Positions 6,001 to 9,000 of a stretch of 64,000 nucleotides of DNA are shown one piece after another (position 1 is the stretch's first letter; every line of letters starts with the position of its first letter). The stretch lies in the NCBI RefSeq assembly GCF_030013205.1, contig NZ_CP122648.1. The stretch is one strand, 5' to 3'. The stretch comes from Escherichia coli (GTDB taxonomy: Bacteria; Pseudomonadota; Gammaproteobacteria; Enterobacterales; Enterobacteriaceae). Position numbers: made by a program.

Positions 6001-9000
6001 CTCACTGGCAGAAGCCCAGGCCAAAGCGGATTCCGCATACAGCAATATGGGCCGTCGAGCTCCGGCCCCGTTTGCTGGTGAAAAGTCGATGGATTACCGC
6101 AAGCGTGCATTAATTGGCGCACAGAAGCTGGCTAAAAAATTCAGTGATGTGGATATTCGTTCCGTTTCAGATTCTGCAACGCTGGCGGTGCTGGAAGATC
6201 AGATTTACAAGGCTGCTCAGGAAAGTGCTCAGTGGGCCGTGGAAAACACGCCGGGTTATTTGACTAAAAAAGTCAGGATGGATGAAGCCGGGCGCCGGAT
6301 TACTGAATATCAGGGGGATCCGAATAACTGGCTTAGTGCTTTCAAAATCCCTCCCCGTCGCCTGGTCAAAATTAACGTTGCAAGCCTCGCGGGGGCATGA
6401 AAAACGTGCTGATTTCAGCCCTGCCGGATTTGGCGGGGCTTATTGATTATAACCGGGTGACATTATGCTTTTAACAGAAATTGAGGCGGCAAAGCAGATT
6501 CGGGACGGTCAGCTACCGTCGCCTTATCAGTTCTCCAACATGTGGCTGGTTAACCTGCGTATTACAGGGACTGGCATGGCCTACCGCGCCGAAGAAAAAG
6601 AATTTGTCTGGCGTTCACCGCAAACTTATCTCAATCCGCAGTTCCTGGAACGTTGCGCCGGAGTACCCGTCATTATCGACCATCCCGAAGGCAAAACCAT
6701 TGAAGACGTTGGCGAACGGTCGCGCATTATTGGCACCGTCATGTTGCCGTATATTCGCGGTGACGAGGTGTGGGGTGTATGCCGGATTTACGGGCAGGAA
6801 ATCATCGATTACATCCAGAAAGCACGGGGGGAGGTATCCACCAGCCCGTCGGTTGTGTTTTGTGGTGCGTCCGGTGGGGCAGAAGTTCCTGATGTAATGG
6901 GCGAGGACAATTTTTTCATTGAGGGTACGCCATTTCTTATCGATCACGTTGCGCTCGTACCGTTGGGCGTATGGGATAAGGGCGGGAAACCATCAGGTGT
7001 GGAAGTAACAACGCCGACAGAAGAAGAACAGCTCGCCGGAATGGTCCGTGAAGTTATTGATGCGGCCTGCAAGCCAGCTCTGGAAAAACTGGAAGAAATA
7101 TCCGGGCGGCTGGATCAACTGGAAAAAAACAGAGTGAGTGAATCATGAAAATTGCTAAAAACTTAAATCTGATTATCCCTGTGCGCACTGAAAAGGGTAA
7201 TGGCTGGCTCCATGCCACGCCGATCAGCAAAGAGGTGTTTAAAGAGCATTTCTTCATCCTGAGTAAAACCTTTTCTGCCATTTTTTCTGAAGGTCTTGGT
7301 GTTGTTGCGGGTCCGCGCGTTGCCTGCCTTATGCTGGAGAAAATCTCCCGTGACTCCGGTTTATGGGATGGGGAGAAAGGCATACGTAATACGCTCATAA
7401 ACGAAATTATTCGCCTGGCAAACCTTGTTTATCCAGTGGAGGGCAAAGGCTACGACACAATCCCTCTCGATATGGCGCTGGAGCGTGAAATCGTTGATTT
7501 GGACGAAGTGGCGGGTGAACTTGTTTTTTTTACATGCGTCTCGTCGATAAATTCCCCGGAGCAGACGAAGGGGACTATGGATGCGGTGAATGGAATATGG
7601 AGCACTCAATGCTCGTCCTTGAGTCTTACGGAATGGATCGATTCATTGCCGACATTGAAGCCTGCCGTCAGTTCTGGCGCGACGGCGAACACGTCATCAG
7701 CGACATCCTCGACTACTCAGCCGGAGCCGGATTCAGAGACATCTGTGCAGATTCCGGTCTGAATGTAAAAACAGCAGCTCAGTTTCGTGAGCTGCTCAAA
7801 TTCAAAAATCCCGCAGGAGTATTGTAATGTCAGGTAATCAGATGCCAGTTCTGACGCTGGACGTTAATGAAGAACACCTCAAACGGCTTGAGGCAATTTT
7901 TGAAAAGTATCGCAACGGGCTGATGATCGGCCCTGCCGGAACGCCGATGAAAATACCGGGGCAAAGTGGGCGCAGCGTGGGGGCAGGCTTACCCGTGGCG
8001 GCAAAATCTGGTCGGACAGGACCGGATGTATCCGGGAGAGTGAGGGACGAAAAAGGGCGCTTTGTCGGCAGCGGAAAAACAGCAGATTCGTTCGTAAGCA
8101 ACTATAAAGGTCGCGGCGAAACGATGTTTGATAAGTATCTCAGCGGGCTGGGGAAAAATGCCCAACAGACGCTGAAAACTTACAAGCAGATCAATTCTAC
8201 ACTACAGACGACCACTTCAAGATTAAACAACCTGTTTAAAACAACCGTATCGTGGGGAACAAAACTCTCGGTTATGGGCGTTGCCGGACCGTTTGGCTTT
8301 GGCATGATGTCCCGTAGTGTTGTAGAGAAACAGAAAAATGCAGATGAGCTGGTGGCAACGCCAGGAGAGTTAAAGGCGGCAGAAAGCACTTATTCGCCTT
8401 ATTTTTCCGGTGTTGGCAATGTGCTCAATACACTGGCAGCAGCACAAAATGATATATCGCATCCTGCCCGCGTCGGCCTGCTTAATCTGGGGCTAAATCC
8501 TGATAAAAACGCGACTGAAAACCTGCCTGTATTCCTGAAAAAGGTTGCAGAGCTGGCAAAGGAATATCAGGGAAGTGGTCTTACCCAGAGCATGCTCAGG
8601 GGAAGAGGGCTTGGATGGGTAAATTTTGGTCTTACTAACCAGTTAGTCAAATATCAGGACAAAATACCTGAACTCAACAAAGAGTTTTCGTTACGTGCAG
8701 CGCAGAATGATTCGTTACTGACCTCTGCACATACAAGTAAATATCAGAATATTACCAGTAACCTGGAAAAAAACTGGGATCGGCTTACCAGCGGATTTCA
8801 GGGAGCAATGGCGGGGAATGAAGACGCTTTAATCAGAATGTCTGATGGTGCCACGAATGCTGCCCTGAATTTCATGAATGGTGAGAACTTTAAAAGGATT
8901 CTGACGGATGTAGAAACGGGGCTGGATAAACTTGGTAAGTACGTAAATGGCCCGGATTTTAATAACGACCTGAACAATTTTGCCGAAAACGTTGCAAAGG

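Follow-up and report, generated by a model that had tools for sequence, protein, structure and literature searches.

The 64,000-nucleotide stretch of Escherichia coli contig NZ_CP122648.1 (assembly GCF_030013205.1) examined here, called the window throughout, contains all but the left end of a satellite-type element of 14.25 kb that is inserted at a tRNA-Gly gene (glyU) and flanked by 18-bp repeats of the tRNA 3' end. The window matches the chromosome of E. coli ETEC4079 (NZ_CP122643.1) identically, with its first letter at position 959,999 of that record. Within the element, two overlapping open reading frames (ORFs) are linked by a run of eight Ts immediately upstream of a gene for a 679-aa protein of tape-measure type, an arrangement that raises two questions: whether the run is a ribosomal frameshifting site of the kind that yields the paired tail assembly chaperones G and GT, and why genes for tail assembly should be found in a phage satellite. 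The reading favored here, to which a probability of roughly 0.78 is assigned, is that the overlapping ORFs encode a G/GT pair of tape-measure chaperones made by -1 ribosomal frameshifting, and that the pair occupies a slot in a satellite of the phage-inducible chromosomal island (PICI) type through which the satellite would supply tail components.

The run of eight Ts (positions 7524-7531; T8) is read in the frame of the upstream ORF (G) as GTT (7523-25) TTT TTT ACA, which places a slippery heptamer, T_TTT_TTT, in the zero frame. In the -1 frame, a TGA precedes the run by three codons, and no further stop occurs until the TAA at 7825-7827, which shares its last A with the ATG (7827-7829) of the 679-aa ORF (TAATG), and that ATG is preceded by GGAG at a distance of 8 nt. 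Uninterrupted translation of G would give a protein of 205 aa (22.2 kDa, isoelectric point (pI) 4.8), and a slip at codon 129 would give a GT fusion of 129+98 = 227 aa with a predicted mass of 25.4 kDa and the sequence ELVFFYMR across its junction. The preliminary description of this locus had listed the T8 run, the heptamer, the two open frames, and the TAATG overlap, all of which are present where it placed them, and its estimate of ~25 kDa for the fusion agrees with the computed mass. Runs of this length are not rare in the window (13 T8 runs observed versus 16.3 expected from shuffled sequence), and the significance of this one therefore comes from its conservation.

Conservation at the nucleotide level was followed in 80 viral contigs (46-100% identity), six bacterial genomes (35-41% identity; Pseudomonadota, Sphingomonadaceae, Acetobacteraceae, Nitrospira, Raoultella, and Limnocylindrus), and the window, which together provide 45 distinct sequences. 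T_TTT_TTT is kept in 44 of these, including the homologs of 35-41% identity from other phyla, and the sole lineage without it reads ATC TTT TTT. The codon before the heptamer varies (GTT in 31 sequences, ATT in 11, TGT in one, and ACT in one) while its wobble T is present in 44 of 44, and the heptamer is thus conserved at synonymous positions, beyond what the amino acid sequence demands. Throughout the homologs examined, the -1 ORF spans 98-109 codons and, wherever a long downstream ORF was found, ends no more than ~11 nt from the start of an ORF of 587-705 aa; with a single exception, the homologs have a stop in this frame 4-13 codons upstream of the run. Across the overlap, the zero and -1 frames are both open in all 45 sequences, and the third frame contains a mean of 4.7 stops. 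Judged by this pattern of sequence conservation, the T8 run with its overlapping ORFs is not a product of chance.

A protein search with a G-T fusion (P0001) as the query against 1.84 billion representative proteins recovered 626 family representatives (at 50% identity), most of which are 186-205 aa long and match the fusion query over residues 1-130 only, i.e., up to the run. Besides P0001 itself, five representatives (P0125, P0128, P0131, P0133, and P0214; 227-263 aa) are 30-40% identical to the P0001 fusion and contain both parts in a single ORF, and a T-part motif, YG..F..D[IV][DE]..R.[FY]WR.G....LD[YW]...GF, is common to the fusions. Family representatives tend to be the longest members of their clusters, and some fusions may be homopolymer errors; with that caution, the single-ORF fusions show that a conserved domain is encoded in the -1 frame. 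One viral contig carries a T9 (L058:8380-8389) and with it an in-frame G-T fusion in one ORF, and the P0001 fusion, found on 6 contigs, probably derives from the same T9 change. Such fusions could be homopolymer sequencing errors or genuine hard-wired or phase variants.

The predicted slip occurs in the middle of G, at codon 129 of 205, leaving 76 zero-frame codons after it (58-76 in the homologs), so that the overlap between frames is long. In G, an N-domain (residues 1-129) is followed by a G-specific helix (~138-158) and then by a disordered Ser/Thr-rich tail whose last residues are IPV. Both translations of the overlap are 32-37% identical between groups whose N-domains are ~50% identical, and the two frames are constrained in alternation. 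Over the first half, conservation (TCVS..N...Q..G.MD.VNG.W) lies in the zero frame, whose product is modelled there as an ordered helix, and the linker encoded by the -1 frame is variable; over the second half, the -1 frame encodes the conserved core of T, and the zero frame encodes the disordered Ser/Thr-rich tail with its terminal [SL][VI]P-x. Alignments and the AlphaFold2 (AF2) model agree that the zero-frame codons after the slip are conserved and partly structured. Because constraint alternates between frames across the overlap, G and GT would differ by whole modules, with distinct C-terminal parts obtained by reading a shared stretch of 230 nt in two frames. This is a variation on the classic arrangement, with ~60-76 codons under selection in two frames.

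The identity of the pair is indicated chiefly by its genomic position in phages. In phage vB_Apl-pPE4 (PP818812) and more than 70 viral contigs, the gene order runs from the sheath (phrog_205, E 6e-54) through a tube-sized ORF of 147 aa, G/T, a protein of 657-705 aa, gp57, gp58, and the baseplate hub (phrog_196, E 5e-43) to the baseplate wedge and fibres, and the order around G/T is retained even where sheath identity falls to 43%. Contractile-tailed phages canonically carry their tail assembly chaperone and tape measure at this position. In the window, the tape-measure gene likewise lies directly downstream of G/T, the upstream neighbour is a DUF2213 gene, and the element has no tube gene. 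The families matching G (phrog_11810) and the 97-aa ORF of T (phrog_14324) are both labelled unknown in PHROGs. An AF2 model of G from an alignment of 14 sequences reached a predicted local distance difference test (pLDDT) score of 78, exceeding 83 for residues 10-150, and the G-specific helix was modelled with confidence; single-sequence AF2 modelling of the P0001 fusion (pLDDT 33) was unusable. Foldseek returned weak matches to predicted viral proteins only, several of which are named tail assembly chaperones (predicted myovirus). Taken together, these data support ORF 7145-7762 with its -1 extension as a candidate G/GT-type tail assembly chaperone, identified by position and recoding signature and not by homology. 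The G/GT reading had been proposed beforehand from the window alone, and it is strengthened here by phage synteny, by conservation of the heptamer across phyla, and by the single-ORF fusions. The G/GT principle is already textbook knowledge, and what is new is the assignment to it of a large unannotated family: a function and a recoding event are proposed for a family of 626 representatives from many bacterial phyla that Pfam and PHROGs leave unannotated, and whose GT product is missed by current annotation, including that of the Prokaryotic Genome Annotation Pipeline (PGAP) for this genome.

The client of these chaperones would be the 679-aa protein. Its residues 1-500 are 87.6% identical to the phage tape measure, a Gly/Ala-rich hydrophobic stretch is found at ~397-452, and a C-terminal cell-wall hydrolase domain (~505-640) matches an endolysin (PDB 7q47) and Gp29 (9vvp). 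Residues 501-637 match tape-measure, endolysin, and transglycosylase families in PHROGs, and the match to the tape-measure family phrog_2276 covers residues 501-630 only, corresponding to the hydrolase domain. This C-terminal domain (window 9304-9866, tape-measure residues ~493-679) is modular, being of the 7q47/9vvp type here and replaced by an SLT domain in vB_Apl-pPE4 and in one other satellite (L010), with both domain types circulating in phages and satellites. Of the helper-tail remodelling suggested in the preliminary description, a change of tail length by the satellite is disfavored, because the satellite tape measures (669-680 aa) fall within the range of those of the helper-type phages (657-705 aa).

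The element that houses these genes has the organization of a satellite. A P4-type tyrosine integrase is followed by an AlpA-family regulator, an AntA antirepressor, an Icd-like gene, a DUF4222 gene, and the primase, and beyond the primase lie GTAGACAGTTGGTAGACAG iterons, ProQ/FinO and PerC genes, two ORFs related to a head protein, G/T, the 679-aa ORF, and a 175-aa ORF with a helix-turn-helix (HTH). The left attachment repeat (attL, L001:1139-1156) and the integrase gene (L001:1321-2535) lie just upstream of the window. Three GTAGACAGTTGGTAGACAG iterons occur at window positions 4237-4572, downstream of the primase gene, and probably serve the satellite as its origin of replication. No sheath, tube, baseplate, capsid, portal, large terminase, or lysis gene (holin or endolysin) was seen among the genes of the element. 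The satellite context and the lack of tube, baseplate, and terminase genes had both been claimed in the preliminary description; the former is borne out by the att repeats, the integrase, AlpA, the D5/P4-alpha-type primase, and the iterons, and the latter by a 14.25-kb element in which no sheath, tube, baseplate, or large terminase gene is found. In terms of satellite classes, Psu, Sid, and Delta had no match among the ORFs scanned, which did not include every small ORF, and the P4-type traits present are the integrase, AlpA, and the alpha-type primase only; the element falls outside the P4-like satellites, which are defined by the alpha primase and integrase in combination with Psu, Delta, Sid, and Ash. 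The features that define PICI-type satellites (an integrase, AlpA, a primase and origin, a size of ~10-15 kb, and att repeats) are all found, and the element departs from the definition of these satellites as free of tail genes by containing the chaperone and tape-measure genes.

Other morphogenetic genes are also present, in the form of two diverged pieces of a helper head protein. In the helper, gp46 is a single DUF2213 protein of 440 aa, and the two satellite ORFs appear in permuted order, with the C-terminal part first. PGAP labels the first of them (5822-6400) a 'NUDIX hydrolase', a name that was rejected since the ORF has no Pfam NUDIX match and matches the C-terminal part of helper gp46. 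We infer that the gp46 pieces resemble the scaffold-like capsid-redirection genes of other satellites, and they may be genes for redirection of capsid size. Coordinates of the principal features are collected in Table 1.

Table 1. Principal features of the satellite element within the window, with the evidence for each.
Feature	Coordinates	Strand	Evidence or remarks
D5_N / P4-alpha-type primase-helicase	2403..4208	+	Domain and profile matches
ORF with residues 61-189 64% identical to the C-terminal part of helper gp46	5822..6400	+	Protein comparison
DUF2213 protein, 54% aa identity to the N-terminal part of helper gp46 (head protease/scaffold-type)	6465..7148	+	Stop overlaps the ATG of G
G, candidate zero-frame tail assembly chaperone ORF	7145..7762	+	Full-length match to phrog_11810; AF2 pLDDT 78; position in phages between tube and tape-measure genes
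Slippery heptamer T_TTT_TTT, proposed -1 site with tRNA-Phe in the P and A sites	7525..7531	+	Kept in 44/45 distinct homologs; FF invariant in the protein alignment
T, predicted -1 extension (98 codons + stop), readable only after the slip	7531..7827	+	Match to phrog_14324; no conserved start codon; single-ORF fusions
Tape-measure-type protein (679 aa, 72.8 kDa, pI 9.4)	7827..9866	+	Full-length match to phrog_7694; gene position; hydrolase domain
175-aa protein with N-terminal HTH, right border of the variable slot	9918..10445	+	Conserved in L004-L008, L010, L086, and L087
attR, 18-bp direct repeat TTCCCTTCGCCCGCTCCA of the tRNA-Gly 3' end	11386..11403	+	Repeat match

Comparison with the phage and with related satellites indicates that the chaperone and tape-measure genes occupy an exchangeable position. 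At the nucleotide level, the element is similar to the phage from exactly the ATG of G to ~9307, inside the tape-measure gene; elsewhere, its only relationship to the phage lies in the gp46 pieces and in two matches of 64 and 101 nt. The right-hand module of the element (ProQ, PerC, the gp46C-like ORF, DUF2213, the slot, and HTH-175) also occurs at the abgR-smrA region, at tRNA-Pro, and at a fourth site, each time with a different integrase and replicase (DUF927 or a RepA helicase), and the slot, defined as the position between the DUF2213 and HTH-175 genes, varies in content between these relatives. In 13 of 5,426 complete E. coli genomes, the slot holds the chaperone and tape measure. Homologs of phage gp58 and the baseplate hub (78% and 72% identity) occupy it in 3 genomes. 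The latter arrangement, found in E. coli 08-00022 (L086:9749-11052) and also in OkiPb01676 and OkiPb01690, comprises a gp58 homolog of 88 aa and a homolog of the hub gp59 of 345 aa, and the L086 sister satellite additionally has a SieB-like gene near its right end. At the right border of the slot, the 175-aa HTH protein gives weak matches of small-terminase and excisionase type, and three to four AAAAAGTGTCAA-containing repeats just downstream of its gene (window 10446-10680) could be a packaging (pac) site or an operator.

Six chaperone-bearing satellites were compared, and all six retain the frameshift signal and full-length chaperone and tape-measure genes. Apart from differences in the length of an A run, they share a single upstream junction, and they have two types of downstream junction. 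Their alleles are diverged, with synonymous divergence (dS) of 0.3-1.3 and ratios of nonsynonymous to synonymous divergence (dN/dS) of 0.06-0.09 for G and 0.14-0.17 for the tape measure, and some satellite alleles are closer to phage alleles than to those of other satellites. This pattern fits one old acquisition followed by exchange of alleles with helpers. An association with helpers is also suggested by the occurrence of the helper sheath-tube region in at least 9 of the 13 satellite-bearing genomes versus 88 of 5,426 overall, in counts that ignore shared ancestry. Satellite and helper are found together in, for example, STEC719, ETEC1716, and UMNF18.

Several observations weigh against the interpretation of this locus as a frameshifted chaperone pair with a tape measure that serves a satellite. 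With regard to recoding, the slip does not lie near the 3' end of G, RNAalifold predicted zero pairs downstream of the slip in 12 diverse sequences when a frameshift stimulator was sought, and the folding of the window sequence in the same region is no better than that of shuffled sequences (z = -0.22). With regard to identity, Pfam and NCBIfam searches gave no match for G or T, and the AF2 model of G had no match among solved structures in the PDB. The full-length match of the 679-aa protein, phrog_7694, is labelled 'unknown function', and its assignment as a tape measure draws on gene position, size, and the hydrolase domain in place of a full-length match to a described family. With regard to function in the satellite, the chaperone and tape-measure genes are dispensable for the element, because the slot is empty in most satellite relatives and contains a deletion remnant in one genome, and the low dN/dS may partly reflect selection in phages, because alleles appear to have been exchanged with helpers. 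Lastly, none of the matches listed pointed to an intact helper in the window's own strain, and in its closest relative the helper is deleted and has neither sheath nor tube. Deleted helper-type prophages take more than one form: that of ETEC1748 (L096) has lost gp52, the sheath, and the tube while keeping the chaperone, tape measure, and baseplate genes, and that of E. coli W13-16 (L094:7988-9674) has an internal deletion joining gp46 to the 3' end of the sheath gene. In phages of the L094/L096 type, the portal is named 'anti-CBASS protein Acb1 family' by PGAP.

Two alternatives concern the overlapping frames themselves. GT could arise through transcriptional slippage, in which RNA polymerase adds one U on the T8 run and a minority of mRNAs carry G and T in frame. 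RNA polymerase slipping on homopolymers is well established as a source of such products (PMC5009743), the run is a T8 in most lineages, and the natural T9 variants (L058 and probably P0001) are in-frame fusions. However, two distant lineages keep T7 only and one T6 only, and the conserved unit is an in-frame X_XXY_YYZ heptamer, including the wobble T of a variable codon, rather than a run of eight or more. A ribosomal mechanism is also reportedly the one used by phage P2, at T_TTT_TTG. The transcriptional route is regarded as improbable. Far less credible still is the absence of any recoding, with 7534-7827 as an independent small gene read from ATG 7534 and the T8 run incidental. An ATG does directly follow the run in the E. 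coli group, and the 97-aa ORF forms its own PHROGs family (phrog_14324) and is separately annotated in some records, yet no Shine-Dalgarno sequence precedes 7534, and the -1 ORF begins variously with YMRL, YLRV, YISI, YLCV, or YGFL (the last four in divergent homologs), such that no ATG, GTG, or TTG start is conserved. Conservation of the heptamer at synonymous positions and the existence of single-ORF G-T fusions further argue against a separate gene.

The remaining alternatives accept the frameshift and concern the role of the genes in the element. The chaperone and tape measure may be captured passive cargo, or a decoy that poisons the tail assembly of competing related phages. The slot is variable, being empty in most relatives, filled by gp58 and the hub in 3 genomes, and deleted in one; anti-phage systems, some of which block tail assembly, are typical of PICI accessory regions (PMC11364771), and tape measures are known to be targeted by defence (PMC10884400). 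Set against this are full-length genes with an intact frameshift signal in all six satellites compared, which have one upstream junction in common and diversified alleles, and a chaperone that travels with its client, as expected for a functional tape measure, although the last point does not separate helping from poisoning; cargo or decoy is judged an unlikely explanation, yet one that deserves serious weight. The element could alternatively be the remnant of a decayed prophage with leftover tail genes, given that helper prophages with internal deletions do exist (L094 and L096). Against such an origin stand the exact 18-bp att repeats, an integrase-AlpA-primase-iteron backbone unrelated to the helper, helper nucleotide matches limited to 64 and 101 nt outside the chaperone/tape-measure genes and gp46 pieces, and gp46 pieces that are permuted and only 54-64% identical to those of the helper. 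The occurrence of the module at no fewer than three integration sites, where integrases and replicases differ, and the presence in the viral collection of contigs of 10-13 kb that correspond to the element, likewise speak against decay, which is considered highly improbable.

If the locus encodes a frameshifted G/GT pair serving its own tape measure, most ribosomes would read through to make G, and a fraction would slip back one base on the heptamer, with both tRNA-Phe re-pairing, to make GT. If the proteins behave like lambda gpG/gpGT, their common N-domain would coat the tape measure, and tube subunits would be recruited by the T domain, so that G and GT act as chaperones of the tape measure encoded downstream. 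The gene pair is part of the tail module in a family of temperate contractile-tailed phages of the Rac-SA53/vB_Apl-pPE4 type. The satellite would provide its own chaperone and tape measure, to be built into tails made otherwise of helper parts, and the outcome would be tails that contain the satellite's tape-measure allele and its cell-wall hydrolase domain, and not tails of a different length. The intact chaperone/tape-measure pair, together with the hub genes in relatives, suggests that satellites can also act on helper tail assembly.

A more specific proposal, offered tentatively and as one that may well prove wrong, is that in this family of PICI-type satellites the slot, which lies between the head-remodelling genes and the HTH/TerS-like gene, is a swap slot for cognate pairs of helper tail initiators, either chaperone plus tape measure or gp58 plus hub. 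If true, a swap slot would allow the satellite to set the internal membrane-penetrating core of the tails that it uses, for example to escape defences or superinfection exclusion that recognise the tape measure or hub, or to sabotage competitors. In that case, satellites would manipulate tails in addition to capsids and packaging. Additionally, satellites are both defined and computationally sought as elements free of tail genes, and current detection rules may discard elements such as this one.

Other features of the window lie outside these main subjects. At the 3' end of the DUF2213 gene, a run of As (A7 at window 7123-7129) is A6 in four relatives (L004, L007, L008, and L010), and a G-to-A change produces a run of eight As in L006; the length of the run shifts the DUF2213 stop, which overlaps the ATG of G in the window and falls earlier in L004, leaving a gap before G. 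In a long stretch lacking annotated genes between the antA and icd-like genes, 64 nt (window 926-987) are 81% identical to PP818812 20274-20335, which lies just upstream of the packaging genes of the phage; this could be a shared regulatory site, has no Rfam match (a scan of window positions 1-14000 gave none), and was the only match found when a pac or cos site shared by satellite and helper was sought. Between the satellite attR and the locus of the E. coli type III secretion system 2 (ETT2), a second mosaic island (window ~11700-26100) contains a YecR-like lipoprotein, a serine recombinase, many small ORFs, a major capsid protein (19408-20436), a 607-aa protein, IS3, a baseplate protein, and a second tyrosine integrase. 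This island (~13-26 kb) was considered as the helper and rejected, having no tail or head protein in common with the helper type. The ETT2 type III secretion island itself (window ~28500-48000) carries IS2 and IS1 insertions and several frameshifted or truncated genes (SpaN/EivJ, YscQ family).

Among known systems, the closest functional model for the gene pair is phage lambda, whose gpG and gpGT are tail assembly chaperones (Levin et al. 1993; Xu et al. 2004, 2013, 2014; reviewed in PMC5009743) produced by a shift 'near the 3' end' of G (PMC5009743). The locus described here resembles lambda in having two products from one start, a predicted -1 slip on an X_XXY_YYZ heptamer, a position immediately upstream of the tape-measure gene, an acidic chaperone paired with a basic tape measure, an arrangement conserved despite low sequence similarity, and no apparent need for a downstream RNA structure. 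Lambda G/GT is not known to have a conserved downstream RNA structure either. It differs from lambda in its heptamer (T_TTT_TTT versus G_GGA_AAG), in a slip at codon 129 of 205 that leaves G with a C-terminal module of its own rather than a slip a few codons before the G stop, in having no detected sequence or fold match, and in belonging to a contractile tail. Phage P2 offers a second comparison: its gpE and gpE+E' are said to be produced at a slippery T_TTT_TTG, reportedly described by Christie, Temple, Bartlett & Goodwin in 2002 (J Bacteriol). As in P2, a myovirus, the slippery site here is a T run, the gene stands in phages between those for the tube (FII in P2) and the tape measure (T in P2), and the -1 extension overlaps the start of the tape-measure gene. 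P2 E, in contrast, has only 91 aa and a slip site close to its end, the proteins described here have no detected homology to it, and the P2 satellite P4 is not known to carry tail genes.

With respect to satellites, the backbone of the element (int, AlpA, primase, iterons, Icd-like, AntA, PerC, and ProQ) agrees with descriptions of enterobacterial PICIs (PMC6092414, PMC13612085), and the element matches the PICIs of Enterobacteria (Fillol-Salom et al. 2018, PMC6092414; PMC10085698) in its P4-type integrase, AlpA, primase with iterons, Icd-like, AntA, and PerC/ProQ genes, in its size of ~14 kb, in its insertion at a tRNA gene with att repeats, and in its helper-derived homologs of head-assembly genes. 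It differs from them in its tail-assembly genes (chaperone and tape measure here, gp58 and hub in relatives). According to de Sousa et al. 2023 (PMC10085698), tail genes occur 'never or very rarely' in satellites, and tail and lysis genes are treated as forbidden components (PMC10085698). SatelliteFinder marks tail profiles as 'forbidden' and may reject elements of this type, depending on the profiles included. The capsid-forming PICIs (cf-PICIs), which encode a complete head and packaging module of their own and steal tails (Alqurainy et al. 2023; 10.1101/2022.09.08.507074), are comparable in that the satellite encodes structural virion proteins of its own instead of taking all of them from the helper, although the arrangement here is roughly the opposite: the element encodes two internal proteins of tail assembly and lacks genes for a capsid, portal, or large terminase. 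No satellite with tape-measure or chaperone genes was found described in the literature searched. Relative to all of these systems, the new points are the mid-gene slip with its long dual coding, and the presence of chaperone and tape-measure genes (in relatives, hub genes) in a satellite of the PICI type.

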